Below are positions 335-63,954 of a stretch of 64,000 nt of DNA, one piece after another. Numbering within the stretch: the stretch's first letter is position 1; every line of letters begins with the position of its first letter. The stretch is taken from IMG/VR virus record IMGVR_UViG_3300035208_002115; one strand, written 5' to 3'. The position numbers and the translations under genes were made by a program. A model generated the notes under the pieces. It searched no databases and was not told the origin of the DNA. It worked only from the letters and a program-made list of their open reading frames with translations. This DNA comes from a virus. Taxonomy: Duplodnaviria > Caudoviricetes.

Positions 335-712
335 ATGACACATGTTAAAACATTTGAAAACCATTCTGGGGAATCTTCCAATAGTATAAAATGGGAAACT
401 ATAAAAAAACATGTAGCAAATCAATTACGTAATTTGTTACAACCAAGGGATATCATCATAAAAGAAGCTGGCAAAATATTAACATATCTTGTTAAAAGAA
501 GAATTAATAACGAAAAAGAATTGACATTCACTCAGACATGGGATGTATTCAAAGAAGTTAAAAATGATTTAATCAGTATTGTGGATAATTGGGATATTAG
601 AATGTGTGACAAATTGATAGAACTATATCCAAAAGGTGTTCCTTCTTTCGTTAAAAATAAAAAATATAAAGCCGAATTAACTGATGATGGATGGATTTTA
701 GTGAAAACTTAA
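335..712 (+). CDS. putative internal head protein (CTS-like leader)
   Basis: N-terminus MTHVKTFENHSGES. Confidence 0.6.
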   Translation: MTHVKTFENHSGESSNSIKWETIKKHVANQLRNLLQPRDIIIKEAGKILTYLVKRRINNEKELTFTQTWDVFKEVKNDLISIVDNWDIRMCDKLIELYPKGVPSFVKNKKYKAELTDDGWILVKT

Positions 713-723
713 TCGATTAATAT

Positions 724-755
724 TTTGGTAGTTATTTAAAATATGCGTACCTTTG
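724..755 (+). promoter_or_regulatory. Bacteroidota-type sigma-A promoter (TTTG-N20-TACCTTTG)
   Basis: TTTG 724-727 and TAnnTTTG 748-755 with a 20 nt spacer, upstream of ORF 781. Confidence 0.7.
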
Positions 756-780
756 CACCCTTATTTTAAATAACATAACA

Positions 781-1149
781 ATGCGTACCAAAAGAGATGA
801 TATTAAAAGAAAATATAATAGTATTTTCAAGGATTTCGCCACTAATTTTAATACAGAAATTGAGACATCAGATAAACCATTAATTTCCATGTTCAATGGA
901 TATAATGATGAAATATTTCACAATTTTCATTTTCAATTTAAAAATGGTATTAAATTTTATACTATAATAAGTGATGATACTAAAAAAATCACTTATCTAA
1001 GTGTTAGGATTCCAGACCCGTCTACAAGAAAAAAGTTACCAGAATATCTAAAATACATAAATCAAAAGATGAATGTACCAATAGTGGAAGGCTTTGTAGA
1101 AAATGATGTATCCAACCCTATTAAATTAGAACCAGTCGATGCTGAATAA
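781..1149 (+). CDS. hypothetical protein
   Basis: 122 aa ORF flanked by a promoter and a terminator. Confidence 0.7.
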   Translation: MRTKRDDIKRKYNSIFKDFATNFNTEIETSDKPLISMFNGYNDEIFHNFHFQFKNGIKFYTIISDDTKKITYLSVRIPDPSTRKKLPEYLKYINQKMNVPIVEGFVENDVSNPIKLEPVDAE

Positions 1150-1158
1150 ATAAAATTC

Positions 1159-1184
1159 AATCCCACAAAATAGTGGGATTTTTT
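1159..1184 (+). terminator. intrinsic terminator
   Basis: AATCCCAC/GTGGGATT stem followed by a T run. Confidence 0.7.
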
Positions 1185-1213
1185 ATTTAATATAATAATT
1201 AAAAATATTACAT

Positions 1214-1423
1214 TTGTTAGTAATAAAAATAATACCTATGAATGGTCAGAAATTAATAGATTATATCGAAAAACATAACATGAAGGATAAAGAAGTTATG
1301 GTTGTAGTTCCCATCAATGGTTGGTGTAGAGCTTACGATATAAAAGACATTGGTAACGAAGCCGATGATAATACGGTTTTTATTTCAATTGAAAATATAA
1401 TATATAAAAATGAAGAAATATGA
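1214..1423 (+). CDS. hypothetical protein
   Basis: ORF with ATGA overlap into the next gene; true start may be a downstream ATG. Confidence 0.6.
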   Translation: MLVIKIIPMNGQKLIDYIEKHNMKDKEVMVVVPINGWCRAYDIKDIGNEADDNTVFISIENIIYKNEEI

Positions 1424-3547: not shown

Positions 3548-3552
3548 TATTT

Positions 3553-4307: not shown

Positions 4308-4308
4308 T

Positions 4309-5323: not shown

Positions 5324-5324
5324 T

Positions 5325-8279: not shown

Positions 8280-8612
8280 GTGATTAAAGTAGACTGGGAT
8301 AATCTAAACAAAGATGATAAGGAATTGATGTTAAAATTCCGTTATATTATTGATGCGTATGATGATGAATCGATTGATTCCACTAAAATAACTGAAGAAA
8401 AACGTGAATTTGTTACAGCCATTCACGATTTTTTAAATTATATACAAAGTTTCGAAAAGGCTCATGATGATGTTATTGGTCACATTTTAAAGTATCAAAG
8501 GCATATTATTGAAAATTTTGTTGTAAAATTCTATACAACTATTGATTTGAAAATATTCCGAAAGAAAAAACTTGATAATATATTCAATGAAGAATTTGAT
8601 ATTATTAAATAA
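8280..8612 (+). CDS. C-tag protein
   Basis: FRKKKLDNIF near the C-terminus. Confidence 0.7.
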   Translation: MIKVDWDNLNKDDKELMLKFRYIIDAYDDESIDSTKITEEKREFVTAIHDFLNYIQSFEKAHDDVIGHILKYQRHIIENFVVKFYTTIDLKIFRKKKLDNIFNEEFDIIK

Positions 8613-9387
8613 ATTTGTTAAATTGTTTAATGATAAATTCAAAGTCGTTATAGATATGAATTTTGATTTTAAAAATGAATATCATAAAGATAATACGACT
8701 TTTTATATTACATATGGACTTGATTATAACTATAACCCAGTTGCTGTTAATAAGATAAATGAATATGAAAGATATATTGATAAGCATCTTATGAATTTCA
8801 ATATTGATGAAACAGAAAATCAACCGCTTCAAGATGAAATAAATGAGGTTTATAAAAAAATACATTCAATATTAATTGAATATGGTTATCTTTCATTTCA
8901 AAAAACTCTTGATACATACCAATTAGTACAAAGAAACTGGTTTAGAATATTAAAAGAATATGATTCATATGGTTCTTCATTAATTTATGATGAAGAATTT
9001 AAAATTGCATATTCTATTTATAATAATTATGATGATATAGCATGTATTAACCGAGATAAATTAACTATCTACACTTTATTCATCATTCGGGAAGATTGGG
9101 TGTGTGAAGTTGGAGACGTTTGCTATAATATAGATAAGCAACAATTTTATTTGAATAATTATAACACATTTTATTTCCCAGAAGAATTAAGAAAAATTCC
9201 TTTAGATGTTTTTTCTGGAAAAGCTGCATTTTATTACCATCCTGAAATAAATACTGTTGTATTAAAATGTGATGATTTTACAGTCACAAAAATACCGTCT
9301 TCAATTATTCATTCCAATGGTTATATTAACTTGGTGTATGATAAATCTTTATTGAGAAAAATAAAAATAGAAAATATTAATATTTAA
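8587..9387 (+). CDS. C-tag protein
   Basis: Ends LLRKIKIENINI; ATG start at 8587 preferred. Confidence 0.7.
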   Translation: MKNLILLNKFVKLFNDKFKVVIDMNFDFKNEYHKDNTTFYITYGLDYNYNPVAVNKINEYERYIDKHLMNFNIDETENQPLQDEINEVYKKIHSILIEYGYLSFQKTLDTYQLVQRNWFRILKEYDSYGSSLIYDEEFKIAYSIYNNYDDIACINRDKLTIYTLFIIREDWVCEVGDVCYNIDKQQFYLNNYNTFYFPEELRKIPLDVFSGKAAFYYHPEINTVVLKCDDFTVTKIPSSIIHSNGYINLVYDKSLLRKIKIENINI

Positions 9388-9983: not shown

Positions 9984-10472
9984 ATGAGCCATATATTAAA
10001 CTTTAACAATTTCCGTATACATGAATCTAAATTCGATAAATCTGAATTTGATTCAGTAACAGAAGATATTAAAAATATCCTTAATATGAACTTTTCTCCA
10101 GCTAAAAATATCTTTTATAAAGTTGGTGAAGAATTTTTAGATTACCCCAAATACTTAGCAACCAAAATTATTCCAACAGCCGTGCGTTTCAATGTGACTG
10201 ACCAAGATTTTAAATATACAGACCCAGATGATGAATTACGGAACGAATATACGGAAGGGGTTCTTTCAAAAAGAGCCAATGATATTGGGTTAATGCCTGT
10301 TGATAAATATGAAGAAAATGGTAAATTTTTTATGGAATATGAGGTTATTCTACATGATGTAGATTTAAACCGAGCTGTTAAATATGGGGATGATGATGAC
10401 GAAGAATCTTTTGATGGTAAATACTCTGACGATAATGAAGATGATGGAGAAGGTTTAAAAGGAGTTTTTTAA
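9984..10472 (+). CDS. putative internal head protein (CTS-like leader, acidic tail)
   Basis: MSHILNFNNFRIHES; D/E-rich C-terminus. Confidence 0.65.
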   Translation: MSHILNFNNFRIHESKFDKSEFDSVTEDIKNILNMNFSPAKNIFYKVGEEFLDYPKYLATKIIPTAVRFNVTDQDFKYTDPDDELRNEYTEGVLSKRANDIGLMPVDKYEENGKFFMEYEVILHDVDLNRAVKYGDDDDEESFDGKYSDDNEDDGEGLKGVF

Positions 10473-20382: not shown

Positions 20383-21260
20383 TGGGGGAAAAATACGACA
20401 AAATTCTACAAAAAAAGAATAACGAATTAATTTATTATATTTTAGATTGGGATGATAATGTATTATACATGCCTACTAAAGTATTACTTGACAAAAAAGT
20501 CAACAATGAATGGATACCCAGAGATGTTTCAACATTTAAATTCCGAAATATAAAAGACCATGTTGATGCATGGCAATATAAAGAATACGGTGATGATGAT
20601 ACTCTTTATAAATGGAGATTCAGGGACGATGATATTGACATGGCCTTATCATATTTCAGAGATTATGGAAAAAGAGGTAGTTTACAGTTTTTATATGATG
20701 TAAAAAATGCAATCAAGAAAAAAGGATTTGCACCATCTTGGAGCATATTTATAGAAACATTGATTAATGGTCGTATATTTTTAATTTGTACAGCACGAGG
20801 CCATGAACCAGATAGTATACGAAGTGGTGTAGAATACATAATATTTAATTTTCTATCTGAGATGCAGAAAGAAAAGATGTTAGAAAATTTAATGGAGTGG
20901 GAAGATACTGACTGTAATTGTTTTAAAACATTAGTAAAAAATTATTTAGACCACTGTCTATTCATCGGTGTACAATCTGAATATTTTAAAGAAAAATACT
21001 CAGTTGATGGAAGAAATATTAAAGTAGAAGAATCCAAAAAAATAGCTATTATAAGTTTCATAGAATATCTCACAAAAGAATATTTACCTATGTACAATAA
21101 TCCGAAAGCTAAAGTTGGATTTTCAGATGATACAATATCGACACTCCTTAATATAGAAAAATTAATGAGGAACGAATTGTCCCTCATTTACCCTTTAGAT
21201 TTTTATGTTATTGATACGTCCGACCCAATGGTCGATGGTGGTATTAAACGTAAAGTTTAA
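20382..21260 (+). CDS. HAD-superfamily phosphatase-like protein
   Basis: LDWDDN (motif I), CTARGH (II), K (III), GFSDD (IV). Confidence 0.75.
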   Translation: MGEKYDKILQKKNNELIYYILDWDDNVLYMPTKVLLDKKVNNEWIPRDVSTFKFRNIKDHVDAWQYKEYGDDDTLYKWRFRDDDIDMALSYFRDYGKRGSLQFLYDVKNAIKKKGFAPSWSIFIETLINGRIFLICTARGHEPDSIRSGVEYIIFNFLSEMQKEKMLENLMEWEDTDCNCFKTLVKNYLDHCLFIGVQSEYFKEKYSVDGRNIKVEESKKIAIISFIEYLTKEYLPMYNNPKAKVGFSDDTISTLLNIEKLMRNELSLIYPLDFYVIDTSDPMVDGGIKRKV

Positions 21261-21682
21261 TATTTTTCAGTTGCAACCAGAGCTTCTGATATTTCATGGA
21301 TATTTCCTTGGAATCCAGCTCGTTTATTATCTTCGGATGTGTTATCTAACTTATAATCTTCAATCCACAATTCATCAATACCTTCACCAGCATCCCACAC
21401 TTTATAATTTCTATCATTTATTTTAACAGTTGCATATGCACCTTGATAATTATCAAATCCCTCAACATTTATTAGTTCAAATGGAAATCCTTCAGGTAAA
21501 ATTTCTTTTAAATCTTCCATTTGGTCAGCCATATATTTGATACGACTGGTATATTCGTCTACATCATCGGGATTATCCTTAACATATTGCCAATCCAAAT
21601 CAGAAGGCCACTCACCAGTTTCATTTATTTTACCTGTTGTAACATTCTCGTTGAATTTATTGAATTCTTTTAAATATTTCAT
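21257..21682 (-). CDS. putative internal head protein (CTS-like leader)
   Basis: MKYLKEFNKFNEN; AATATATA at 21705-21712 (minus). Confidence 0.65.
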   Translation of the reverse strand: MKYLKEFNKFNENVTTGKINETGEWPSDLDWQYVKDNPDDVDEYTSRIKYMADQMEDLKEILPEGFPFELINVEGFDNYQGAYATVKINDRNYKVWDAGEGIDELWIEDYKLDNTSEDNKRAGFQGNIHEISEALVATEKY

Positions 21683-21713: not shown

Positions 21714-22064
21714 TTAATTTTTAATCGGCATTTCCATTTTATTATTTTTAAGTCCTATTGATTTGTCAAATGCATCTCTTTGTTTTGACCATTCATGTTT
21801 ATCATATGGGGTTTTATATGGTAATAAATTTAAAGCTTCTTTTTCTTTGCCTTTAAGTTGAGATAACACAAAATCAACAATTTGTCTTTCATCTCTTTCA
21901 CCATTGTATGGTGATTCAATTAAACCATTTTTTTCTAATTTATCAATGGCACTTTTATTTAAAGACATAGCAGAAGTAGGTTCATCTCTTTTCCATAATA
22001 CATCTTCTATTTCTTTTCTTAAAAAATCTTCATTATAATTTTCAAAAGTTTTTATAAACTTCAT
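21714..22064 (-). CDS. putative internal head protein (CTS-like leader)
   Basis: MKFIKTFENYNED; AATATATA at 22091-22098 (minus). Confidence 0.65.
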   Translation of the reverse strand: MKFIKTFENYNEDFLRKEIEDVLWKRDEPTSAMSLNKSAIDKLEKNGLIESPYNGERDERQIVDFVLSQLKGKEKEALNLLPYKTPYDKHEWSKQRDAFDKSIGLKNNKMEMPIKN

Positions 22065-26247: not shown

Positions 26248-26859
26248 ATGTTAATTAAGAATTTCAATTCATTCATAGTTAATGAAAGTGCTGAATCTGT
26301 CGTTGAGTTTCTAACAAAAGTTAGAGAAGACTTAGATATAATGGGCGAAGTTAAACCTATTCTAAATTCATCTTTCGAACGTCTTAGTAGTAAGAAAATT
26401 AATACAGTCGATGATTTCAGAGAAGCAATGGAAGATGCAACGGGGGCTGATGCAACTAATTTAAGTGGTTTCGACCTTGATAAGCAACTTGACCTGTGTA
26501 TATATGCAGAAGAAGAAGAAGATGGTAATGATAAAGGATGTCCAGCTTGTTCTTTTGATGATTTAGCTGGTATAATAAATGATAATGCTGTAAATGGTTT
26601 GAATTATATAGTAAATAGTTATTTACATCCACTTTTAGATAGAATTGAATCTTTCATGAATAATAATAATTTATCATATAGTAATATTCATCGTTTTGAA
26701 CAATATGATATGTTAGCACCATTATCACAAAAAACAATAGTAAATGGTTCTTATTCAATATATCAAGAAGCTAAAGAAGACCCCAAATTCGCAGAATATA
26801 ACTATATAGATGAAGAACTTGGGACTGAATTCTATATTACAAAAATGAATATTAAATAA
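26248..26859 (+). CDS. putative internal head protein (CTS-like leader)
   Basis: MLIKNFNSFIVNES; acidic. Confidence 0.65.
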   Translation: MLIKNFNSFIVNESAESVVEFLTKVREDLDIMGEVKPILNSSFERLSSKKINTVDDFREAMEDATGADATNLSGFDLDKQLDLCIYAEEEEDGNDKGCPACSFDDLAGIINDNAVNGLNYIVNSYLHPLLDRIESFMNNNNLSYSNIHRFEQYDMLAPLSQKTIVNGSYSIYQEAKEDPKFAEYNYIDEELGTEFYITKMNIK

Positions 26860-27479
26860 TGTCAATAAAATCGTATAATTATTTTCTGACCAATGATAAT
26901 AAATCAATTATAGAAAATTATAATAAATTAATATCAGAGGGTGTAGAAGTTGATGATGCTTTATTAGAAACTGCCCAGAAATTTAATAAAGATAAAAAGT
27001 CTATCAATAAAATCGTTATTGGTGTATTATACGAAAACACATATGCGAAGAAATTTGAAGATTATATAGGTAGTACTCCACACATTAATAGAGAAGATAT
27101 AGGTTTAAAACCTGAAGGTGGGGAAGAAAATGAGGAAGAAGAAACACAAACATCTACTGATAAACAAGACCAAGATATTATACACTTCGGAGAATATAGA
27201 AAAGGGTCTGATAAATGGGGTTCAATGATAACTAAGATTATGGAATGGTTACGCCTTAAAAAAGATGAAATGAAAAAAGAGTTGGATAATATTCAAATAA
27301 ATGTTGATGATTTTCAAAGTGAAACAAATATACCATTAACTGAACTTGAAGATTTCGTTAAAGATAAAATTTCAAAAGGTTTATATAATTTTGAAATAGT
27401 CATTGATTATGATAATAACTCAATTAAGTTTTATAACTTATCTGATAGAAACACATTACAAATTGAACAAAATAAGTAA
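26859..27479 (+). CDS. putative internal head protein (CTS-like leader)
   Basis: MSIKSYNYFL...IENYNKLISEG; acidic. Confidence 0.6.
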   Translation: MSIKSYNYFLTNDNKSIIENYNKLISEGVEVDDALLETAQKFNKDKKSINKIVIGVLYENTYAKKFEDYIGSTPHINREDIGLKPEGGEENEEEETQTSTDKQDQDIIHFGEYRKGSDKWGSMITKIMEWLRLKKDEMKKELDNIQINVDDFQSETNIPLTELEDFVKDKISKGLYNFEIVIDYDNNSIKFYNLSDRNTLQIEQNK

Positions 27480-28634: not shown

Positions 28635-29312
28635 ATGATTCTTAAATATAATAAATTCTTAAATGAATCCTTAGACTTTAAATTGAATAATCCTGAATTT
28701 TGGGAAGATTATAAAAATTTATTAAAAAAACTAAATAATCAAGATAACTTTTCATCTTACTGGGAATTTAAAGAAAAGTGGGTAGGTGTTGTATTAGAAG
28801 AAAAACAACTTGAAAATGCTTATAATAAATTATATGTTGATTTACACAATAAAAATATAATTCCTGTCGGAATAACATTCAGTGAAAATATTTACATGTA
28901 CGCATATGGATGGCGAGATATTACTAAATTCTTAAAAAAAGAATATAATATTAATATAGATGACCCCTTTGATTTTATTAAAAATAAATCAGTTAAAATC
29001 TTCAGAGGTGTACCAAAAACTCAATATGAAAATCTTGAATACTTATCTGAAAATAAATTTAAATCTTTTACATTAGACAAAGAATTGGCAATTCGATTTA
29101 CACAATTAGGTTATGTTAGTGGGAGCTGGAAAGATGAATCGCAAAAAAACGGGTTTATTATAGAAACAGATATAACATTAAATGATATTTATATATACAA
29201 CCCAGAAGGTCACGAACACGAATGTATAGTTCGAGGTGAGTTAAATTATAAAAAAATCCATATTGTTGAAAATGGCAAAATTACAGAAGTTGCAAAAATT
29301 ACAGAATTATAA
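28635..29312 (+). CDS. CTS-leader protein with ADP-ribosyltransferase-like domain (R-S-E type)
   Basis: MILKYNKFLNES; IFRGV...KSFTLDKELAIRF...HEHECIV. Confidence 0.65.
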   Translation: MILKYNKFLNESLDFKLNNPEFWEDYKNLLKKLNNQDNFSSYWEFKEKWVGVVLEEKQLENAYNKLYVDLHNKNIIPVGITFSENIYMYAYGWRDITKFLKKEYNINIDDPFDFIKNKSVKIFRGVPKTQYENLEYLSENKFKSFTLDKELAIRFTQLGYVSGSWKDESQKNGFIIETDITLNDIYIYNPEGHEHECIVRGELNYKKIHIVENGKITEVAKITEL

Positions 29313-30138
29313 AAGTTTTATTAATGAAGATTTAGGATTAATGGAACATGATGGCATATTAATTATAGTCGATGTTCAAAAAGAATTTGGTGATTACATC
29401 CCCGATGATATGGTTAAAGAATTGTTTGAATATTGTAAAGAATTTCATGATGTATATCAAATTTGGGATGCTCATGATGCTGCTACTCCGACTTTTAAAT
29501 TTCCCAATCAGAAGTTATCTATAAAAAAGCAATTCGGTAAAAAATTCTTAGAAAAAGATATTCAAAGTAAATTGGAAAAATTAAAAAATGGTAGTATTGA
29601 AGGTCAACAAATACAAATCGATTCGGATGACATTTTCGTTCGAGTTAAAAATAACCACGATTGGTTTTTTATAAACGAAGAATTATTAAAACTATTTAAT
29701 GAATTAAAAGGTAAAAAGGTTATAATGGTAGGTGGTGCTGACTTTGAATGTTTAAAAGATGTGTTTATTGCATGTAAATCTATGGGTGTTAAGGCCATGT
29801 TAAATCATAAATATATTTACAGTGCCGAAACTAAAAAGGAAGAAATATCCGAAAGTGTTGTATTTAAAGTTAACAATAACACTCCTGAAATTTTTCAAAG
29901 AACCATTTATAGATTACCAACTACAAAAGAATTAGAAAATGTAAATAAATTCAAGTTATCAGAAGAAAAAATTTTAAATGGATTTGTTTATACCATTATT
30001 GGTAGAGGTATTAAAGATTCTAAAAATAAACAAATAATAATAGAATCCATATCAATATTATGTGAATTATATCCAGATAATGAAACATATAAAAAAGCAC
30101 TCATTTTAGCTAAAAATCTGTCATTAAAAAGATTTTAA
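29272..30138 (+). CDS. CTS-leader protein with isochorismatase/nicotinamidase-like cysteine hydrolase domain
   Basis: LQNYKSFINED; LIIVDVQKEF, WDAHD, K, VIMVGGADFECL. Confidence 0.65.
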   Translation: MAKLQKLQKLQNYKSFINEDLGLMEHDGILIIVDVQKEFGDYIPDDMVKELFEYCKEFHDVYQIWDAHDAATPTFKFPNQKLSIKKQFGKKFLEKDIQSKLEKLKNGSIEGQQIQIDSDDIFVRVKNNHDWFFINEELLKLFNELKGKKVIMVGGADFECLKDVFIACKSMGVKAMLNHKYIYSAETKKEEISESVVFKVNNNTPEIFQRTIYRLPTTKELENVNKFKLSEEKILNGFVYTIIGRGIKDSKNKQIIIESISILCELYPDNETYKKALILAKNLSLKRF

Positions 30139-30168: not shown

Positions 30169-30567
30169 ATGAAATACTTGAAAATATATGAGTCATATAG
30201 CAGTAATAAGTCTGAAAATTTTTATGCCAAATTTTGGATAACTGCATTATCGAATGCATTTAATAGTATTGCTGAAGTTGATAAAAGTCAGAAAATAAAA
30301 CCATTATATGGTGGGGGTGATTATATATTTGTCGGATACAAAATACCAATCCCAGATATAGAAAAAATATCTTATATTATAATAGAAGGTGTTCAAATTA
30401 ATGGTGTTATAGTTAATCCGTCAATAATAGTTTTCGATGAACAAAATATGGGAATGAGTCATGGTGCATTGCATACTACATATACATTCAAAAAGTTACA
30501 TAATGAAAATATAATTGAGGTTATAGAAGCAGCTAAAGATTATATAAAAAAATATTCATCAAATTAA
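30169..30567 (+). CDS. putative internal head protein (CTS-like leader)
   Basis: MKYLKIYES; AATATATA at 30144-30151. Confidence 0.65.
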   Translation: MKYLKIYESYSSNKSENFYAKFWITALSNAFNSIAEVDKSQKIKPLYGGGDYIFVGYKIPIPDIEKISYIIIEGVQINGVIVNPSIIVFDEQNMGMSHGALHTTYTFKKLHNENIIEVIEAAKDYIKKYSSN

Positions 30568-32898: not shown

Positions 32899-33432
32899 AT
32901 GAAAAAATTCACTGAAATAATAAACGAACAATTAACATACGATTATGGGTGTGTTATGATTAATTTCGATATTCCAAATTGGAATGACATAATAAAAGAG
33001 ATTGAAAAAGATGATATTTATGATGAAGATGGGTTTGGTCTCGAAAAAGAATCACATATAACACTACTTTTTGGTTACCCTAAAGAAATAGCTGTAAAAG
33101 ATATAAAAAATATCATCGGTAATTTGGATAGTTTTTATATTGAAATGCAAGAAACGTCATTATTCCAAAATGATAATTATGATGTTCTCAAATTTGATGT
33201 GAATCATGACACACTACATGCATTAAATGACTCATTAAAACAATTACCCAACACTTCCACCTTCCCAGATTATCATCCGCATATGACTATCTCATACATC
33301 AAAAAAGGTAGGGGAATTAAATATATAAAAAAATATGATAATTTGATAGTAGCAAAACCGTTAGAAATTGTGTATAGTTTACCTACTGGAACAAAGGAGA
33401 AAAAACAAGTCACCCTTCTTAAATTTAAATAA
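32899..33432 (+). CDS. 2H phosphoesterase (T4 gp57B/Acb1-like) with CTS-like leader
   Basis: MKKFTEIINE; two HxT motifs, HITLLFG and HPHMTISY. Confidence 0.8.
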   Translation: MKKFTEIINEQLTYDYGCVMINFDIPNWNDIIKEIEKDDIYDEDGFGLEKESHITLLFGYPKEIAVKDIKNIIGNLDSFYIEMQETSLFQNDNYDVLKFDVNHDTLHALNDSLKQLPNTSTFPDYHPHMTISYIKKGRGIKYIKKYDNLIVAKPLEIVYSLPTGTKEKKQVTLLKFK

Positions 33433-33437
33433 AAATA

Positions 33438-33824
33438 ATGTCTTATAAAATAAAAACATATAATCGATATGTAAATGAAGATAATTACATATATCACGGA
33501 ACTGGTAAAGGTCAGGCTTTAAATATTCAACGAGACGGTTTTATGAAACCAAATAATACTGGTGAAGAATTACCATCAATATCATTTACTAATGATTTAG
33601 ATTATGCTAAATATTACGCCAAATCAAAAGGAGGAATAGATAAAATGATAATTTTAAGAACAAAATTAAATAATGATTTTAAACTTTCTCCGAGAATAAG
33701 AAAAAATAAAGGAGATGAATATATTACATTTAATGAAATTCCATCATCTAAATTAGAAATATTGACGGGTTCTGAATGGTGTCTTTTAAATAAATGGAAT
33801 GTGATATTTGATGAACCTTTGTAA
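33438..33824 (+). CDS. CTS-leader protein with ADP-ribosyltransferase-like fold
   Basis: KIKTYNRYVNED; YHGT...I...G...ISFTNDLDYAKYYA...DEY.....IP. Confidence 0.65.
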   Translation: MSYKIKTYNRYVNEDNYIYHGTGKGQALNIQRDGFMKPNNTGEELPSISFTNDLDYAKYYAKSKGGIDKMIILRTKLNNDFKLSPRIRKNKGDEYITFNEIPSSKLEILTGSEWCLLNKWNVIFDEPL

Positions 33825-54145: not shown

Positions 54146-54796
54146 TTATATAATATCTTTAGGTTCAGATGGTTCAGCAGAGTCTGGTTCACCCTCAACA
54201 TCGTTATCATCATCTAACATTTTATGACGTTCTTCGATAGACTGTGTAATCATATCTTCAAACCACTTCCAAGCTGCCTTTTTATCATCATCTGTGATTT
54301 TGATGTTTTTTCCTTCATCACCCGTTATATCTTCATCTGTATATGCTCTCCAACCCTTTTCATATTTTACCAGTTTGTTACCAGCCTCAACAGGTGGTAT
54401 AGCTATATAACATTTAGATAAACTTTTATCTTCCTGATTTAAATCCCATATATATTTGGGATTACTTTCATAATCACTTCTTACTAACCCATAATCTGAA
54501 GTAAGTTCAAATTTAATATACATGACAGGATGTTCCCAGTCACCACCAGCCATCCATAAATCAGCATTTATCTCATATTTCACAGGTTGGTCTTTTCGTA
54601 AATTTTTTGTTATATAAAAAGTTTTCTTTTGCCCTGTTGAATCATCATTCTCCAAATCAAAATGTGTTTTATAATAATTCTGACCGAATTTAACAATTTT
54701 ATGCCATGCATTACTCACAATTGTTTTATAATTAAAAATTTCATCATTCTTTTTTCTATTGATGACTGATTCGTTAAATGTGTATAAGTATTTCAT
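54146..54796 (-). CDS. putative internal head protein (CTS-like leader)
   Basis: MKYLYTFNES. Confidence 0.65.
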   Translation of the reverse strand: MKYLYTFNESVINRKKNDEIFNYKTIVSNAWHKIVKFGQNYYKTHFDLENDDSTGQKKTFYITKNLRKDQPVKYEINADLWMAGGDWEHPVMYIKFELTSDYGLVRSDYESNPKYIWDLNQEDKSLSKCYIAIPPVEAGNKLVKYEKGWRAYTDEDITGDEGKNIKITDDDKKAAWKWFEDMITQSIEERHKMLDDDNDVEGEPDSAEPSEPKDII

Positions 54797-54798: not shown

Positions 54799-55395
54799 TT
54801 ATTTATAGGTTTTTAATATATTAATGATTTTTCCAATAGTTTCTTTATCTAATTGAGACAATCTTACCCATTCAAATAAGTTTTTATATGTAGCTCTATC
54901 TTTCCATGCACCATAATCAAGTAATAACTCAATAACATCCAATTTACCTTTAACAACAGCAATATACAATGCGGTATAACCGAATTTATTTTTACTAAAA
55001 ATGTTTATACCTGCATCAAGAAGTATATCTATTATAGGTAATTGGTCTTCTGATGGTTTAATAAATGAGTGTCCTATTGCAATCAATAATGCATTATTTT
55101 TCTTTTTATCATTTATGTTAAGGTCAGCACCTTTTTCAACTAAATATTCAACTAATGCCTTATTGCTACTCAAAACAGCATACATTAATGGTGTATATCC
55201 TTCAGAACTGCTTCTAACATTAATATCAGCACCTCTATCCAATGCAAGTTCAATGCCCCTTATATAACCATTATCAGCACATTTTAATATCATATCATCT
55301 GGTGTTAAATCTTTTAATGAATCCAAGATTTCATCTTCCGTTTTAGGAATCATTTTATCTTTTAAAGATTCGTTGAATGATTTTAAGTGTTTCAT
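54799..55395 (-). CDS. ankyrin repeat protein with CTS-like leader
   Basis: MKHLKSFNES; GYTPLMYA...LVEKGAD.N, NNALLIA, GYTALYIA. Confidence 0.88.
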   Translation of the reverse strand: MKHLKSFNESLKDKMIPKTEDEILDSLKDLTPDDMILKCADNGYIRGIELALDRGADINVRSSSEGYTPLMYAVLSSNKALVEYLVEKGADLNINDKKKNNALLIAIGHSFIKPSEDQLPIIDILLDAGINIFSKNKFGYTALYIAVVKGKLDVIELLLDYGAWKDRATYKNLFEWVRLSQLDKETIGKIINILKTYK

Positions 55396-55883
55396 TATTT
55401 TAATTCTGAGTTTACATAATTTTTAAATTCTTCAATAATTTCATCCATATATAAAGAATAATTATAGAATTTCTTAGCTATCACTTCATTTTGATATCTT
55501 TCTTTCCCGTGTATTTCAGTCTTCTGAGCTTTTAATTCAAGGTGAACAGTATATGTTCTACCATATTCACCTTCTACTTTCACTCCAACTGGATTTATAC
55601 CAGTTTCTATCCACACCATAGCATTACCATTTATAGTATCATATTGTTCTTCATTATCAATTTTAATTTCATCCTTACTCACTCTGTAAATAGAAGTTGC
55701 TCCATATCCTAAATAGTCTTGAAATTTGTTCTTTTCGAATTCTTGTAAATGTAATAACGAACCAATTTCTGATTCAAATTTTTCAGAAAAGTCTGATATC
55801 AATCTCATATCATCTATTTTATCTTGTTTAGTGTGAATATAATTTTCGTTTAAAAAATTACTAAAGTCTTTTAATATTTTCAT
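55395..55883 (-). CDS. putative internal head protein (CTS-like leader)
   Basis: MKILKDFSNFLNEN; AATATATA at 55905-55912. Confidence 0.65.
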   Translation of the reverse strand: MKILKDFSNFLNENYIHTKQDKIDDMRLISDFSEKFESEIGSLLHLQEFEKNKFQDYLGYGATSIYRVSKDEIKIDNEEQYDTINGNAMVWIETGINPVGVKVEGEYGRTYTVHLELKAQKTEIHGKERYQNEVIAKKFYNYSLYMDEIIEEFKNYVNSELK

Positions 55884-55924: not shown

Positions 55925-56800
55925 TTATTTCGAAATTTTATCCAGATATCGGATAAATGAGAATACGGGTTTATGAGTTTGACTTATAATATCACCTTTT
56001 ATATAGGGTAAAATCTTAACTGTATATTTTTCTTTCAGTCTATCTATATATTTTTTAAGTATTTCATCTTGATTTCTGTATGTGTACGACTCAGGATGAT
56101 TTTCTTTAATGAAAATAAATGTATCATCTGGAATGATGAATCTATTATTTTTAATTAAAATTTCCCCCTCATTCTTAAATACTGAAGCAAATGCTAATAT
56201 GATAAATTGAAACATGATGTCCAATTCATCTCGTTTATATTTTGGTTTTTCTTTATTTAATATTTGAAGGGATTTATCTAATAATTCTTGGTAATTTTTG
56301 ATTTTTAAATCACCGATTTTATGTATATCTCTTTCATCTAATTCACGAAACAAATCATACATTTGTCCATTAATTTGTCTATATAATTTTAATAAATTAT
56401 TATCGATATTTTTTTTATAATTTTCAAAATATTCGGTCTTTCTGATGCCCTGATATAGTAAACTCCCAGTCGAATAATCATCATCAACTTGATATAACCT
56501 TCTTAAAACTTTCATATTATCCTTAGTTAAATATACTAAATCATCATAACGAACCTTTTCTATTTCATTTAATGTTTGAACAGATTCTTTTTTCATAACC
56601 AATAAAATATCCCGAATATCGAAATACCCATTAATTATATTGATATTATCAGATATACCAATAAGATTTTTTAGTTCTCCAGATAATAAATTTTTTATAG
56701 TTTCCTCATTAAATTTTAACACGAGATAATAATACTTGTCATAGTTTTCAGTAGACAAATTATATTCGTTTATCTCACTATATGTGTTTAAATATTTCAT
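55925..56800 (-). CDS. putative internal head protein (CTS-like leader)
   Basis: MKYLNTYSEINEY; IGISD...NEGEILI faintly ART-like. Confidence 0.6.
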   Translation of the reverse strand: MKYLNTYSEINEYNLSTENYDKYYYLVLKFNEETIKNLLSGELKNLIGISDNINIINGYFDIRDILLVMKKESVQTLNEIEKVRYDDLVYLTKDNMKVLRRLYQVDDDYSTGSLLYQGIRKTEYFENYKKNIDNNLLKLYRQINGQMYDLFRELDERDIHKIGDLKIKNYQELLDKSLQILNKEKPKYKRDELDIMFQFIILAFASVFKNEGEILIKNNRFIIPDDTFIFIKENHPESYTYRNQDEILKKYIDRLKEKYTVKILPYIKGDIISQTHKPVFSFIRYLDKISK

Positions 56801-56803: not shown

Positions 56804-57526
56804 TTATGGTTCTATGTAATCTTTTATTGGAACATCTCCCAATATTCTAATTTCATGTGTATCCGTTCCTGTTATAACAGGTGTATTTTTATTTATGTCA
56901 TTTTTATTTATTACAAATATTATTACATTATTAATATCAACTGTTTTTAATCTTTCAATACCGCCAATTATAACGGGGTCGTTCAATCTCACATCAATAT
57001 TAGCACCCGTATAACACATCATTCTTCTGGCATTTTCAACCGATTCAATGAATGGTTCATTGTGTGATAATTTTTGTCTTGAATCAAAATCATCAAAGAA
57101 AACGAGTTTCATTTTATCAATATTCTTACCAACTCGTTTTTCTTGTATTTTTAACCATTCATCAATTAGTTTTTCTAAATCCTCTCTTGTTTTAGCTTTA
57201 GATAATAGAACAGCCAAATATATACCCCAATAATATGTATAAGCAAGTTCTATATCAGATGTGACACTTATACCCTCTATTCTTCCCCCACCAAAACCAG
57301 CACCCCATTTTTGTGCTTTTAAAAAACCGTCAGATAATATTTTATTTTTAAATATGGATACATGATATAATTTATCTGGTAAATTTTCATGTTCAATAAC
57401 TTTACTATTAACATATTCACCATTAATTTCTAATCCACCCGATTCGCCACCCCAACCTTTAAGAACTTTTATATCACTATGTTCATATTCCAATATAAGG
57501 TTTTCAAATGTTTTCAAATATTTCAT
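56804..57526 (-). CDS. CTS-leader protein with ADP-ribosyltransferase-like fold
   Basis: MKYLKTFENLILE; LYHVS...IL..G...GISVTSDIELA...HEIRI.GDVP. Confidence 0.6.
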   Translation of the reverse strand: MKYLKTFENLILEYEHSDIKVLKGWGGESGGLEINGEYVNSKVIEHENLPDKLYHVSIFKNKILSDGFLKAQKWGAGFGGGRIEGISVTSDIELAYTYYWGIYLAVLLSKAKTREDLEKLIDEWLKIQEKRVGKNIDKMKLVFFDDFDSRQKLSHNEPFIESVENARRMMCYTGANIDVRLNDPVIIGGIERLKTVDINNVIIFVINKNDINKNTPVITGTDTHEIRILGDVPIKDYIEP

Positions 57527-57535: not shown

Positions 57536-58045
57536 TTAATTTATAATACTTTTTGTATCAAATAAAACATAGTTTCTTGCATCAGTAGTCCATTTATCCA
57601 TGAAGGTATTCCCGATATAACCAAGGTTTTTTAAAAACAAAGAAGCTTCTTTTTCTCCACCCAGTACATAGGCCAACCAATCATATGCTTGTTTATTAGA
57701 AACATCACCATAATCGAGAAAATCAGATTGAAATTCTTCTATCACATCTTCATCTATATCCTGTCTATTCAAAGCACTTTTTATTCTTTCACCGTCTTCA
57801 ATGACTGCATCTAAATCGAAATAATTTCCGTTTTTAATTTCATGTTCTCGAACAAAACCATGTGTAGTATAATATCTTTGGCTGACTTCTTCTTTGTCAC
57901 TAAAATATATCCCCCAACCACCCATACTTTTACCATCACCAGTACCAACTTTTGTCATATCGAATTCATCAAACTTTCTATCACTGCCATGATAAACTTG
58001 AATTCCCTCAAATATTAAACTTTCAAATGTTTTTAAATATTTCAT
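57536..58045 (-). CDS. CTS-leader protein with ART-PolyVal-like ADP-ribosyltransferase domain
   Basis: MKYLKTFESLIFEG; VYHGS..KFDEFD......G....GWGIYFSD...GY.G...NYVLFD. Confidence 0.72.
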   Translation of the reverse strand: MKYLKTFESLIFEGIQVYHGSDRKFDEFDMTKVGTGDGKSMGGWGIYFSDKEEVSQRYYTTHGFVREHEIKNGNYFDLDAVIEDGERIKSALNRQDIDEDVIEEFQSDFLDYGDVSNKQAYDWLAYVLGGEKEASLFLKNLGYIGNTFMDKWTTDARNYVLFDTKSIIN

Positions 58046-58053: not shown

Positions 58054-58458
58054 TTATTGTATTTCTTCTTCATCTCTTTCTATTGCTGGACTCGATGGAT
58101 TAGACTCATCATATGGGAATACATATTTCATATAAATATCATCATATTCTTTTTCAGAAACATTCTCAATTTTATAGAAAAAACGTTTTGCTATAAAATA
58201 CATATCATTAACTGGTTCGTCTGAAATAGTTGTGTTACCACCAGTTGGATGTAATGATATAGATGCTTCATTAAAATCGAAATTATCTATAATCCATTGT
58301 GGCTTTCTGTCTGGAGAACCACCCATATACGGTGTTAATGGATAAATAAAAGAACCTTTTATATCATTCATAAATTCTATAAACTTTTCTTTACTTATTA
58401 TATAAGCATCTGCGTATGTTAATACTGCTTCGTTTGTAAAAGATTTAAAGGTTTTCAT
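58054..58458 (-). CDS. putative internal head protein (CTS-like leader)
   Basis: MKTFKSFTNEA, the closest match to the T4 IP leader; AATATATA at 58486-58493. Confidence 0.7.
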   Translation of the reverse strand: MKTFKSFTNEAVLTYADAYIISKEKFIEFMNDIKGSFIYPLTPYMGGSPDRKPQWIIDNFDFNEASISLHPTGGNTTISDEPVNDMYFIAKRFFYKIENVSEKEYDDIYMKYVFPYDESNPSSPAIERDEEEIQ

Positions 58459-59393: not shown

Positions 59394-59930
59394 ATGAAAT
59401 ATGTAAAGACTTTCGAAACGTATAACCAAGAAATAATCCAAGAAAAAACTGGATATAAAAAAACATATTATCAACAAGATAATATTGGAAAAGCAAAATA
59501 TACTATCAGCTATCATGATGGTGTTGATACACATAAAGACGGAAGTCCATTTTTTGGTATTAGAACTTTCAAGAATAAAGAGAAAATGAATAAATTTGTT
59601 GATGAATTAAAGAAAAAAGGATATATCGAATCTCTTAATCCTATAAAAGAAAGTAAAACTGAATATAAATCTATAAAAAAAGAAGCTGATTTTTTTAAAT
59701 TAGCTGGTGAAATAGATAAAAAATATTTCCCTGATGTGAAGTATTACAGGGATGATAAAGATGATACGGCTGTGCATTATGCAATCGAAATATTTAATAA
59801 TGGTATATCTGGTTATGACACCCTGATAAATAAATTAGCAAAACATTGTAAAGATACTAAAGAAAATATTCACAATATTGTGAAAAAACACATTGAGGAT
59901 TTTGGTGATTATGAATATGAAGTAAAATAA
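59394..59930 (+). CDS. putative internal head protein (CTS-like leader, two modules)
   Basis: MKYVKTFETYNQE; internal IESLNPIKES; AATATATA at 59337-59344 and 59360-59367. Confidence 0.65.
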   Translation: MKYVKTFETYNQEIIQEKTGYKKTYYQQDNIGKAKYTISYHDGVDTHKDGSPFFGIRTFKNKEKMNKFVDELKKKGYIESLNPIKESKTEYKSIKKEADFFKLAGEIDKKYFPDVKYYRDDKDDTAVHYAIEIFNNGISGYDTLINKLAKHCKDTKENIHNIVKKHIEDFGDYEYEVK

Positions 59931-59934: not shown

Positions 59935-60318
59935 TTATTTTTTCTCTATTGTTTTATTTTCTATATTATATATAATATAATGAGTATTCATTGGTGCGTG
60001 TGCAGCAGCATTAGTTACAAATTTTAAATCAACGCCTATATTTTTTGCCTTTTTCACAACTTCAGAAGATAGTGGATTTTCAATAATTCTATTAGCTTTA
60101 TTATATCTCCAACTGTCAACTACAATTATAACATCCCAATACTGTGGTTTATCATAATATTCAACTATTATTTTTTTCAATTTTTCCGATTTATCACCAA
60201 ATTTGTTTTCAACCCATCTACTTAAATCATTATATTTTTTAATTACAAATGGTATTAATTCGCTTATAATTAATTCATAATCTCTGTCTGCGTTGAATTC
60301 TTCATATAATTTAACCAT
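59935..60318 (-). CDS. putative internal head protein (CTS-like leader)
   Basis: MVKLYEEFN; AATATATA at 60344-60351. Confidence 0.6.
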   Translation of the reverse strand: MVKLYEEFNADRDYELIISELIPFVIKKYNDLSRWVENKFGDKSEKLKKIIVEYYDKPQYWDVIIVVDSWRYNKANRIIENPLSSEVVKKAKNIGVDLKFVTNAAAHAPMNTHYIIYNIENKTIEKK

Positions 60319-61134: not shown

Positions 61135-61344
61135 ATGGACAGATTTAATGAATTATTACAGAAACGCAAAAACATGACCGCCAATATTTTTGAGGAAGAA
61201 GAACTCATTGAGTTGGCTAAGTCCATGAGTGAAGAACAACTAAAAGATGTTGATAAGAAATTGTTAACGTATTCCAATGATGAACGTCTCGATTCATTGA
61301 ATGCATCGTTTGACAAATTATTGGCTGCTTTAGATAAAAAATGA
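61135..61344 (+). CDS. hypothetical protein
   Basis: 69 aa helical ORF. Confidence 0.6.
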   Translation: MDRFNELLQKRKNMTANIFEEEELIELAKSMSEEQLKDVDKKLLTYSNDERLDSLNASFDKLLAALDKK

Positions 61345-61348
61345 TATT

Positions 61349-61561
61349 ATGAAAATAACCGAATTTTTAAGAGCAGCCCAGTACAGCAGGTTAACTGTTG
61401 GGTATAGGTGGTTATTTGCGGATGGTAAAGACACATACACTGTCTGTGAAAGATTACCAAGAAAAAGAACTACAACCATACTTATTTCAAAAGCAGCAGA
61501 AGATGATGCTGTTAAATTATTAATAGAAGGTGAAGAATTATATTCAGACCTTTTAGATTAA
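61349..61561 (+). CDS. hypothetical protein
   Basis: 70 aa ORF. Confidence 0.6.
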   Translation: MKITEFLRAAQYSRLTVGYRWLFADGKDTYTVCERLPRKRTTTILISKAAEDDAVKLLIEGEELYSDLLD

Positions 61562-61616
61562 ACTTAATTTTAATTCAAATAAACAACATAATTTTTAAAT
61601 TTTAAACAATACAAAA

Positions 61617-63371
61617 ATGAGAACAAAAGATGTTTTTATGTTTATAGTCATGGGATTCTTTCTATGGCTTGTATTTTTCTTTGGTATGCCCATTCTAAGT
61701 TACGGGTGGGTTGGTTGGCCTATTACATTAATAATTATTGGAATCCTATTTTTAGTTTTTGATGTCCGAAATGAACAATCAGAAGGGAGTTGGAGAATGT
61801 ACGCAGGTATATTTTCACTTGTTATTGGGTTATTATTTTTTGTTATTCTTCCAATTGGTTCGATGCATATTTTTAATGCCGATAATTATCGAAATCTTAT
61901 TGGCGAAGTTGAACAAAAAACATATTCCAATGATATCAGCCCTATTGACCCGACACGTATAGTTTTAATTGACTATGATGTCGCTGCCAAACTCGGTGAT
62001 AAAAAACTTTCCGATGTTGAAAATATGGCTCTCGGTAGCCAAACATCAGTTGGAAAATATACCCATCAGAAAATAGGTACTGACCTTTACTATGCTGCAC
62101 CTTTGAATCATTCTGGTTTTTTGAAATGGCGAAAACATAAACAAGGTACATGTGGATATATTCTTGTTAATGCACATAACCAAAAAGATGTTCGTCTTGT
62201 AAAAGATGTTAATGGTAAAGAATTACATTTAAAATATCAAGAAGGTGGTTGTTTTGATGATTATCTTCCACGACATATTTATAGAGCATATAGGAAATAT
62301 GACCAAGGAGATATAGAATTCGAAATTGATGATGATTTAAATCCTTGGTATGTTGTAGCATTATATGATAAAGTAATAGGTTATGGTGGTAAGCAGGTTG
62401 TGAAATGTCTTGTTATTAATCCAGAAACTGGTAAAATTGATGAATATAAACCCGAAGATGTACCAGCATGGGTAGACAGAGTTTATCCAAAAACTCTTAT
62501 GAATAAACAATTTGATTTGTGGGGTGACCTTGTACATGGTTGGTGGAATTTTAGTAATCAGGATAAAGTTAAATTAAGTCAGGAAACCCAACTTGTTTAT
62601 GGTACAGATGGTAAATGTTATTTATTCAGTGGTGTGACTTCAGTTGGGTCTGATGATGCAAGTGTTGGATTTATAATGGTGGATGCAAGAACAAAACATA
62701 CTATATTTTATCACGCCAGTGGTGCTATTGAAACAGCAGCCCAAGCATCAGCAGAAGGTAGGGTACAGGAAAAGGAATATAAATCATCACAACCTCGTCC
62801 CTATAATATTAATGGTGTATGGACATATGTAATGGCACTTAAAGATAAAGAAGGACTTATTAAAAGTATCGCTATGGTTTCTTATGCTAATTATGAAATT
62901 GTTGGTATAGGTGAAACTATACAAGATGCTATTCGAAATTATAAAGCTGCCCTTAATAATAAAGGTGATATAATGGTCGCATCAAATGAACATTCAAAAT
63001 CAACTTTAGTAGGACAGTTAGTTCGGGTAGGTTCTGATAATAAAGATGGTCAGACATATTATTATTTGGTTTTTAAAGAGTCAGCTAATATTTTATTCGT
63101 AGGTACATCAGCACTATCAAATGAACTTCCATTGACCCAAATAGGTGATGAAATTAAAATAACATTTGAAGCTGGGGAAGAAGGTGAAGTGTTTATTGAA
63201 ACCTTTGATAATCACAACCTCAACTTTGTTAAAAGTACAGAACAAGTAAAGGCTGATTCTGTTTCTGCTACCGTAGAGAAAAGAATAAATTCTGATAACC
63301 TTGACCTGAGATTGAAATCTAAAATGGAAACAATGACTCCAGAGGAAAAGGAAAAATTATTGGAAAAATAA
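61617..63371 (+). CDS. large membrane protein (3 N-terminal TMs plus extracytoplasmic domain)
   Basis: 584 aa; hydrophobic N-terminus; YAAPL, FEIDD...PWYV, WVDRVYP, GVTSVGSD motifs. Confidence 0.8.
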   Translation: MRTKDVFMFIVMGFFLWLVFFFGMPILSYGWVGWPITLIIIGILFLVFDVRNEQSEGSWRMYAGIFSLVIGLLFFVILPIGSMHIFNADNYRNLIGEVEQKTYSNDISPIDPTRIVLIDYDVAAKLGDKKLSDVENMALGSQTSVGKYTHQKIGTDLYYAAPLNHSGFLKWRKHKQGTCGYILVNAHNQKDVRLVKDVNGKELHLKYQEGGCFDDYLPRHIYRAYRKYDQGDIEFEIDDDLNPWYVVALYDKVIGYGGKQVVKCLVINPETGKIDEYKPEDVPAWVDRVYPKTLMNKQFDLWGDLVHGWWNFSNQDKVKLSQETQLVYGTDGKCYLFSGVTSVGSDDASVGFIMVDARTKHTIFYHASGAIETAAQASAEGRVQEKEYKSSQPRPYNINGVWTYVMALKDKEGLIKSIAMVSYANYEIVGIGETIQDAIRNYKAALNNKGDIMVASNEHSKSTLVGQLVRVGSDNKDGQTYYYLVFKESANILFVGTSALSNELPLTQIGDEIKITFEAGEEGEVFIETFDNHNLNFVKSTEQVKADSVSATVEKRINSDNLDLRLKSKMETMTPEEKEKLLEK

Positions 63372-63393
63372 AAATATAAAAATTTGATATTGT

Positions 63394-63422
63394 AAAAGCC
63401 ACTCGTTTTGGGTGGCTTTTTT
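63394..63422 (+). terminator. intrinsic terminator
   Basis: AAAAGCCAC/GTGGCTTTT stem plus T run. Confidence 0.75.
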
Positions 63423-63465
63423 ATTTGTTAAAATTAATATATACTGGAAAATAAAAATATTTTTC

Positions 63466-63954
63466 ATGAAACAAATATTCAAATTCCACGAATTTCTTTA
63501 TGAGAATATGGAAGCTATTTCAAGAGATGATATCAATATATTTGATACAATCGATTATTATTACAATAATATTGATACAACTAATTTCAATGAACTTTTA
63601 CAGGATTTGCAGATTTATAAAGAAGATATGACCCAAGAAGAACTTGATGGTTATCTTGAAAAATATAAACAATTACTTGCCGATGTTGTAGGTGGTAAAA
63701 TTGAAAATAAAGTTACATTCGCTAAAGGATATGGTTATTGGGATGTTACTAAATATCCATATGGGGGCGATTTTAAAAGGTTTGTGGACAATGAATCGGG
63801 TAAAGTAATAGCTGGTACTGTAAAATACCCATACGAGACAAGAGTTGCATTAGATGATGGTAGAACTATCGTTGTTAAAAATGATGCGATTACTAATATG
63901 TATAATTTTATGATGAAAGCTCTCAATAAAAAAATAGGGGTTAAACCAGTTTAA
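63466..63954 (+). CDS. putative internal head protein (CTS-like leader)
   Basis: Likely start 63466, MKQIFKFHEFLYEN; AATATATA at 63436-63443. Confidence 0.65.
   Translation: MKQIFKFHEFLYENMEAISRDDINIFDTIDYYYNNIDTTNFNELLQDLQIYKEDMTQEELDGYLEKYKQLLADVVGGKIENKVTFAKGYGYWDVTKYPYGGDFKRFVDNESGKVIAGTVKYPYETRVALDDGRTIVVKNDAITNMYNFMMKALNKKIGVKPV

Follow-up and report, generated by a model that had tools for sequence, protein, structure and literature searches.

A portable N-terminal leader on about one in ten proteins of an uncultured megaphage is a probable capsid-targeting sequence of the T4 kind

The internal proteins IPI, IPII, IPIII and Alt of bacteriophage T4 carry an N-terminal capsid-targeting sequence (CTS) that is removed by the prohead protease gp21 (PMC9026906, PMC3012670). 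Cleavage by gp21 takes place after L/I-x-E, and mutagenesis in T4 has assigned targeting to residues 4 and 7 (Y4 and F7) and processing to residues 8 and 10 (PMC9026906). Here we describe a short N-terminal leader shared by otherwise unrelated proteins of an uncultured phage, IMG/VR record IMGVR_UViG_3300035208_002115, seen in a 64,000-nucleotide stretch of its genome (the window, G000:C1:189370-253369; plain positions below refer to the window and those headed G000 to the genome). The 10-residue peptide of T4 is enough for loading any protein into the phage head and for its delivery into the cell; to our knowledge, known phages use a loading peptide of this type for a few proteins only. Judging from its sequence, the leader described here is probably a T4-type propeptide for capsid targeting, peculiar to its lineage and cleaved by the prohead protease, whose cargo would be packaged and then injected.

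The source genome measures 675,678 bp, with 27% G+C and a completeness rating of 98%. Its nearest deposited phage records are the uncultured 735-kb genomes LR756501 and LR756503, followed by the Tenacibaculum phages pT24 and PTm1 and the Chryseobacterium phages MA9V, which points to a Bacteroidota-infecting megaphage. Like the T4 CTS, the megaphage leader is an N-terminal peptide of about 10-20 amino acids (aa) in which positions 4 and 7 hold the key residues, hydrophobic or aromatic in nature, and which is mostly followed by a Glu-ending Phi-x-E that could serve as a cleavage site (Phi, hydrophobic); the phage likewise has gp20-, gp21- and gp23-type head genes and an [LI]-x-E-rich scaffold, and its cargo, as with Alt of T4, includes ADP-ribosyltransferases (ARTs). 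Unlike T4, with 3-5 tagged proteins, the megaphage has about 100-130; the consensus is MK[YH]LK.FE.F, and the T4 leaders fall under the threshold of its hidden Markov model (HMM); the protease is fused to a scaffold of 14-aa repeats in one protein of 801 aa; and the cargo is acidic.

Three further systems invite comparison. Ejection or inner-body proteins of phages phiKZ, 201phi2-1 and SPN3US are processed by the S80 proteases gp175/gp245 (PMC5694885, PMC10052503). These, too, are very large phages; they pack dozens of head proteins, their Peptidase_S80-type protease cuts after Glu, and their propeptides are thought to target the prohead. Those propeptides are mostly longer than 100 aa, without a single shared short leader, whereas domains in the megaphage proteins start at residues 11-34, and the phiKZ-type motif, S/A/G-x-E, is not enriched in the megaphage scaffold. 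The polyvalent proteins of phages and conjugative elements carry ART-PolyVal domains thought to be delivered to the host along with the DNA (PMC7824862). The ART domains of the megaphage, unlike these, are separate small proteins with a leader each and not modules of one giant multidomain protein. Encapsulin cargo-loading peptides are also short and portable, and bring unrelated cargo into an HK97-fold shell; they differ from the leader in that they are C-terminal, shell-binding and uncleaved and in that their cargo is not ejected.

By greedy calling, the window has 130 open reading frames (ORFs) and the whole genome has 1127. A 12-column position-specific scoring matrix (PSSM), grown from strict seeds, yielded the consensus M-K-[YH]-[LIV]-K-[TL]-F-E-x-[FY], and a gapped leader HMM was derived from the megaphage genome and its relatives, with a threshold of 8 bits. 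Three definitions are used below: a strict set of 83 proteins, an HMM set of 104 proteins scoring >8 bits, and a loose set of 130 ORFs (HMM plus a heptapeptide variant). The HMM set amounts to 9.2% of the 1127 N-termini, about one protein in ten. By comparison, 11 of 2583 segments starting at an internal Met (0.4%), 2 of 303 ORFs (0.7%) of Tenacibaculum phage PTm1, which is AT-rich too (30% G+C), and 3 of 265 T4 ORFs exceeded 8 bits, so that the frequency at megaphage N-termini is 9.2% against 0.4-1.1% in the controls. An earlier note on the window had counted about 23 leader proteins, and the gapped HMM also arrives at 23 (18 ORFs >8 bits and five weaker ones at 5.3-7.9 bits). The genome-wide motif scan that the note had proposed reveals a bigger set, 104 to 130 of the 1127 ORFs. 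Its phrase of an expansion from a handful to dozens thereby proves an understatement, with at least 100 here versus 3-4 in T4 and, in T4-type jumbo phages, 2-5 exact starts of their own dialect. Within the library that was searched, no paper connects capsid targeting to megaphages or huge phages, and none contains the leader sequences.

Within the strict set, position 4 is L, I or V in 80 of 83 proteins and position 7 is F or Y in 76 of 83. These are the best-kept hydrophobic positions of the leader, and they agree with the T4 targeting residues, in pattern only. At the codon level, second positions are conserved (T at codon 4 in 98%), and first and third positions vary; the retention of second positions beside variable third positions indicates selection on the peptide and not on the DNA.

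A promoter-like box, TAATATATA (often TTTAATATATAA), stands 27-33 nucleotides (nt) upstream of the start codon in 38% of leader genes, compared with 4% of the genes whose products end in a C-terminal tag (C-tag, described below) and 11% of the rest; genome-wide it precedes 173 genes at this distance. Its positions in the window include, approximately and among others, 24194-24202, 26221-26229, 27833-27841 and 52648-52656 (+) and 59317-59325 (-). Window genes behind the box encode a head-tail adaptor (27868-28623), a fibre/decoration-like protein (52688-54145) and an amidase/endolysin (58494-59294), and elsewhere the box is found upstream of the tail sheath and one tail protein. The box, which we take to be similar to the T4 late promoter TATAAATA, is probably a late promoter. 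Because boxed late structural genes start without the leader, it is not a trait of late mRNAs at large. This speaks against reading the conserved stretch as a signal at the RNA or translation level, for instance an enhancer of initiation or a repressor-binding site that spans the start codon. Leader genes do show a more pronounced A-run between -18 and -10 in a very AT-rich region, and T4 RegA-type control works at start regions; set against this, besides the codon pattern given above, L, I and V at position 4 are reached via different first bases, and the leader dialects of other phages differ in sequence yet keep the amphipathic pattern and the Glu. We regard such an element as highly improbable.

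The proteins behind the leader have little in common. As the earlier note had it, the leader sits on unrelated domains: after removal of the first 16 residues, the 83 strict leader proteins fall into 82 BLAST clusters, and those recognised by Pfam belong to diverse folds. Among the 104 proteins of the HMM set, Pfam identified ART-PolyVal four times and topoisomerase IB, ankyrin, cupin, GT2 and ASCH once each, all beginning downstream of the leader at residues 11-34, and about 90% had no Pfam match. The type IB topoisomerase (G000:C1:102689-103696, minus strand; PF01028, 8.8e-26) has the leader MKHLLSFKLFEA and its catalytic core at residues 126-316. The 130 proteins of the loose set have a median length of 162 aa and a maximum of 507 aa, and none contains a transmembrane-like segment, versus 42 of 882 other proteins. 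All six stand-alone ART-PolyVal genes (169-355 aa) start with the leader or a variant of it; a seventh ART-PolyVal copy lies inside an 828-aa fusion and lacks the leader.

The leader recurs in related phages, in part in other sequence dialects. A scan of IMG/VR with one codon version of the leader core retrieved at least 119 loci; among the loci listed, 399 of 1605 ORFs have the leader; these ORFs frequently lie in arrays, and most of their bodies are unrelated to those of the megaphage. Protease and gp23 searches of five leader-rich IMG/VR contigs came out empty or weak because four of the five are fragments (25-31% complete). When 80 IMG/VR loci were picked by the protease-scaffold gene only (43-90% identity), leaders were present on 64 of 1379 ORFs, in 52 of the 80 loci. 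The exact leader-core pattern had no match in PTm1, pT24 or LR756501. PTm1 is truly without leader, and LR756501, whose protease is 66% identical, has another dialect of the form MIK[KT]F..F(INE), one example of which, MIKTFDEFINES, comes very close to T4. A blastn search of isolate phages with the 33-nt leader returned chance matches plus the uncultured huge phages LR756504, LR745206, LR756500 and LR756502, and no cultured carrier.

The ART of the window has 58 homologues, of which four start with MKYLKTFE..., most others have leaders of 17-23 aa (for example MNINxIIxEEIQxLFEG or MKIIITESQLKxLIPEG) and three have almost none; a jackhmmer search for ART homologues in the retrieved loci found none. 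In 46 of the 56 homologues that could be anchored on the ART motif, [LIM]-x-E-[GSN] directly precedes the domain. Scanning for the dialect MNINxIIxEE gave two loci only. The dialect MKIIITESQL (MKIIITESQ[LF]K.L.x.E), on the other hand, occurs in IMG/VR on at least 99 proteins with at least 48 unrelated body clusters. Bona fide gp23 (about 1e-64) and gp21 (1e-24 to 2e-30) are present in all four of its near-complete carrier genomes (93-100%; 269-295 kb) and in a fifth (78%, 233 kb), and each of these five genomes has 2-5 exact MKIIITE starts. These data indicate that short Phi-x-E leaders accompany T4-type head genes, in lineage dialects and in small numbers elsewhere, and that the megaphage clade has multiplied leaders that number a handful in other phages.

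The same observations bear on the suggestion that the leader proteins are a single fast-diverging paralogue family whose N-terminus is the best-kept remnant and has no targeting role. Tandem arrays (window 54.1-58.5 and 26.2-33.8 kb; G000 13.4-16.4 kb) and the many proteins lacking a Pfam match would suit such a family. The bodies, however, include folds as unrelated as ART, topoisomerase IB, ankyrin, ASCH and cupin and show no detectable body-to-body similarity in the BLAST clustering of 83 proteins, and orthologous ARTs in other phages have different leaders or none, which makes this origin improbable.

The leader and a second, C-terminal label exclude each other. The earlier note had seen no window protein with both, and the genome-wide count agrees: none of the 83 strict leader proteins has an R-x-x-K-[IL]-x-x-[IL]-type end, versus 8.7 expected (P = 7e-5). 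In the loose set, 3 of 130 have the C-tag versus 13.6 expected (P = 2e-4), all three being weak matches and none lying in the window. Small ORFs ending in R-K-x-K-[IL]-x-x-[IL]-[FL] form blocks in the window at 3314-6652, 13971-18023, 33849-35014 and 40410-45730; these do not mingle with the leader blocks and have no late-type box. The clean split between an N-terminal leader on late genes and a C-tag on other genes suggests that short address labels may sort much of the accessory proteome.

The head genes of the megaphage lie outside the window, in a T4-type module on the minus strand (G000 543309-549634) that encodes a gp23-type capsid protein (PF07068, 3.5e-27) and a gp20-type portal (PF07230, 5e-68). 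Between the portal and capsid genes, where T4 has genes 21 and 22, is the ORF of 801 aa (G000:C1:545023-547428, minus strand). Residues 39-84 of its product score above the Peptidase_S80 cut-off, and weak matches to Peptidase_S77 (T4 gp21) and, by tblastn, to T4 gene 21 fall in the same place. An AlphaFold model of low confidence (mean pLDDT 55; N-terminal domain 55-78), used for the top fold hit, gave as its only fold matches at E<=0.001 three chains of T4 gp21, 5JBL (2.7e-4, TM 0.56 on target). At least 1477 database proteins are homologous, with 62-70% identity over the first 240 residues; they keep the architecture of the fusion, and many are precomputed as PF03420 and/or PF20034.

Residues 261-470 of the 801-aa protein consist of about 15 tandem 14-aa repeats, Y-S-E-Y-[LI]-A-E-N-[LV]-D-[KN]-S-I-x (for example YSEYLAENLDKNIE), modelled as one long helix, and each repeat includes [LI]-A-E, the T4 cleavage motif. 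The protein has 30 [LI]xE versus 13.6 in shuffles, and nine Phi-N-E versus 1.9 expected (P = 5e-5), which ranks first in density among the 152 proteins with at least 300 aa; [SAG]xE, the motif of the phiKZ type, is not enriched in it (9 versus 7.3 expected). The T4 scaffold gp22 shows a like enrichment of [LI]-x-E (5.9 versus 1.23 per 100 aa). Our interpretation is that protease and scaffold are fused in the 801-aa protein, which would be cut at each repeat. Two other proteins share features with it. An ORF of 77 aa (G000:C1:415016-415249) consists of repeats of the scaffold type (MTYSEYIVEHLDNSIAYAEYITEQ..., scoring 33.9 bits with the repeat HMM) and may be a small separate core protein; a 428-aa protein encoded near the head module (G000:C1:553894-555180, minus strand) has the second-highest Phi-N-E density in the genome, is a candidate prohead core protein, and has a promoter-like box about 77 nt upstream of its gene, beyond the usual 27-33 nt.

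A heptapeptide, [FY]xx[FY][LIVM]xE (Ar-x-x-Ar-Phi-x-E; Ar, aromatic), links the leader to both T4 and the scaffold. It matches residues 4-10 of T4 ipII and ipIII, which both start MKTYQEFIAE, and FGSFLTE at residues 59-65 of T4 gp23, where it ends at the last residue of the 65-residue propeptide, the cut site. In the megaphage, 14 copies are found in the scaffold, and 42 of the 95 other copies start no later than residue 12 of their protein (expected 6.8%, P = 3e-24); the corresponding share is 32 of 72 in LR756501 and 2 of 15, not significant, in PTm1. Phi-x-E occurs within residues 4-22 of 78 of the 104 HMM leaders (75%) versus 32% of other proteins, and Phi-N-E in 33 of 104 (32%) versus 4%.

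These motifs also help to judge whether the leader is instead a docking tag for another late-infection partner, such as the tail, the baseplate, a head-surface site, a chaperone or an intracellular compartment, and is left uncleaved by the prohead protease. Modularity, dialects, late promoters and exclusivity with the C-tag would suit any common reader of the tag, and a canonical [LI]-x-E at a fixed place is missing from most leaders. Nor does the HMM of the 14-aa repeat single out leaders: run against all N-termini, it gave about twofold enrichment over internal controls, with leaders not dominant among the top matches, and mimicry of the repeat is consequently supported at the level of the heptapeptide only. 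However, the heptapeptide, which the T4 leader, the scaffold repeats and the cut site of gp23 all have in common, concentrates at N-termini, Phi-N-E is over-represented in both leaders and scaffold, the leader co-occurs with the protease-scaffold gene, and the logic of positions 4 and 7 agrees with T4. On balance we hold a docking tag for another partner to be unlikely, although less so than a paralogue family.

The interpretation as a T4-type capsid-targeting leader, already put forward in the earlier note, is supported by the head module, positions 4 and 7, Phi-x-E, the late box, the traits of the cargo and the exclusion of the C-tag. The leader would form a short amphipathic helix, M-K-[YH]-[LIV]-K-x-F-E-x-F and often on to Phi-N-E, with hydrophobic residues at 4, 7 and 10/11. 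Leader proteins would be made late in infection and dock onto a prohead scaffolding core built by the 801-aa protein, whose gp21-type domain would cleave [LI]/Phi-x-E sites behind the Glu, in the repeats of the scaffold and probably also at leader ends. Cleavage would free about 100 small, soluble, mostly novel proteins in the head, including six ADP-ribosyltransferases, a type IB topoisomerase and an ankyrin protein, and the freed cargo would exit with the DNA at infection.

Several observations weigh against capsid targeting. The mature cargo would be acidic (median isoelectric point 5.4), which is unexpected for a DNA-coating internal protein, and we know of no precedent for cargo amounting to a tenth of a proteome. 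Phi-N-E ends only about a third of the leaders (32%), and the commonest leader form has Glu at position 8 with T, K or L at P3, off the T4 consensus in its lack of a hydrophobic P3. The likeness to T4 is modest: T4 leaders score weakly under the megaphage PSSM and HMM, with IPI at 7.9 bits (rank 4 of 265) and IPIII at 4.6 bits (rank 10), both under the 8-bit line, and homology cannot be established from a peptide of only about 10 aa. T4 gp61.1 (54 aa; gene 61.1, NC_000866 18966-19130), a hypothetical protein that does not count among the known internal proteins, starts MKTFKEFIKE and fits the heptapeptide of the T4 leader, which shows that proteins with leader-like starts are not necessarily packaged. 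The blastn search against isolate phages found the leader in no cultured relative, and a 183-kb IMG/VR contig (84% complete) with several leader genes has no detectable protease. Finally, the Phi-x-E-G that precedes the ART domain may belong to the fold and not be a cut site. With these points taken into account, we still favour a cleaved capsid-targeting propeptide, with moderate confidence.

A more far-reaching version, which we offer tentatively and would not expect to hold in full, is that the leader is a single-copy mimic of the 14-aa repeat of the scaffold, with Ar-x-x-Ar-Phi-x-E as its core. Cargo would join the helix array of the repeats, the cleavage that takes the scaffold apart would also set the cargo free, and each T4-type lineage might possess a dialect matched to its own scaffold, possibly MKYLKTFE.. 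in the megaphage, MIKKF..FINE in LR756501 and MKIIITESQL.. in the gp21-bearing jumbo phages. The packaged and injected set of any uncultured T4-type phage could then be read from its genome. If capsid targeting by the leader is correct, a clade of the largest known phages tags about one-tenth of its genes for packaging, and part of the 'dark' gene content of megaphages would be a first-wave protein payload that includes ADP-ribosyltransferases. A sequence rule would then list a packaged, probably injected payload without culturing the phage, and new orthogonal sets of leader, scaffold and protease would become available for protein packaging.

In the window, the leader ORFs cluster at 21.2-22.1, 26.2-33.8 and 54.1-60.3 kb, as the earlier note had located them, with singles at 335, 8587, 9984 and 63466; the six N-termini it quoted are the called starts of the ORFs 21257-21682 (-), 26248-26859 (+), 28635-29312 (+), 54799-55395 (-), 57536-58045 (-) and 58054-58458 (-). 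About five of the 23 members are weak or register-shifted. The singles, all on the plus strand, are 335..712 (125 aa, MTHVKTFENH..., 16.4 bits), 8587..9387 (266 aa, MKNLILLNKFVKLF..., a doubtful member at 8.6 bits only, possibly a chance match), 9984..10472 (162 aa, MSHILNFNNFRIHES..., 12.5 bits) and 63466..63954 (162 aa from an internal ATG, MKQIFKFHEFLYEN..., 11.6 bits, with the heptapeptide FHEFLYE from residue 7). The first cluster consists of 21257..21682 (141 aa, MKYLKEFNKFNEN..., 19.8 bits) and 21714..22064 (116 aa, MKFIKTFENYNED..., 21.5 bits) on the minus strand.

The second cluster, on the plus strand, opens with 26248..26859 (203 aa, MLIKNFNSFIVNES... with terminal V-N-E, 10.4 bits), which has a promoter-like box 27 nt upstream, and the weak 26859..27479 (206 aa, MSIKSYNYFLTNDN..., 7.7 bits). 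Two ORFs of unusual register follow, one short (28635..29312, 225 aa, MILKYNKFLNES..., 5.6 bits, heptapeptide YNKFLNE from residue 5) and one weak and offset (29272..30138, 288 aa, ...NYKSFINED from residue 12, 7.4 bits). The remainder are 30169..30567 (132 aa, MKYLKIYESY..., 19.9 bits), 32304..32705 (133 aa, MKYIKRFDEQ..., 15.3 bits) with an ASCH domain from residue 13 (PF04266, 1.7e-5), the weak 32899..33432 (177 aa, MKKFTEIINEQ..., 5.3 bits) and 33438..33824 (128 aa, MSYKIKTYNRYVNED..., 8.5 bits, heptapeptide YNRYVNE from residue 8).

The third cluster is on the minus strand except for 59394..59930 (+) (178 aa, MKYVKTFETYNQE..., 21.8 bits). It comprises 54146..54796 (216 aa, MKYLYTFNES..., 16.6 bits), 54799..55395 (198 aa, MKHLKSFNES..., 18.1 bits) with ankyrin repeats (Ank_2, 6.6e-21), 55395..55883 (162 aa, MKILKDFSNFLNEN..., 18.3 bits, heptapeptide FSNFLNE from residue 7), 55925..56800 (291 aa, MKYLNTYSEINEY..., 15.8 bits) and 56804..57526 (240 aa, MKYLKTFENLILEY..., 22.6 bits). 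The ART ORF, 57536..58045 (169 aa, 22.0 bits), begins with MKYLKTFESLIFEG, and its ART-PolyVal ADP-ribosyltransferase domain follows from residue 15 (PF18760, 1.9e-8). Next to it, 58054..58458 (134 aa, MKTFKSFTNEA..., 7.9 bits) has the form closest to T4 IPI (MKTFKEFTST), and 59935..60318 (127 aa, MVKLYEEFNAD..., 9.4 bits) completes the cluster.

Two observations concern other genes of the window. A second shared N-terminus, x-[KA]-[GKN]-K-Q-[FLIV]-x-N-x-S-I-T, is found on the products of 11204-11650, 11667-12170, 13071-13499 and the boxed fibre/decoration-like gene 52688-54145 (+), as well as on large late proteins at G000 281850, 312046, 318188 and 323791, and is probably a common attachment domain of fibre/decoration proteins. 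The ORF at 47737-51438 (-) encodes a 1233-aa SbcC-like metallophosphoesterase/DNA-repair exonuclease that is also present in Tenacibaculum, Chryseobacterium and Sphingomonas jumbo phages.

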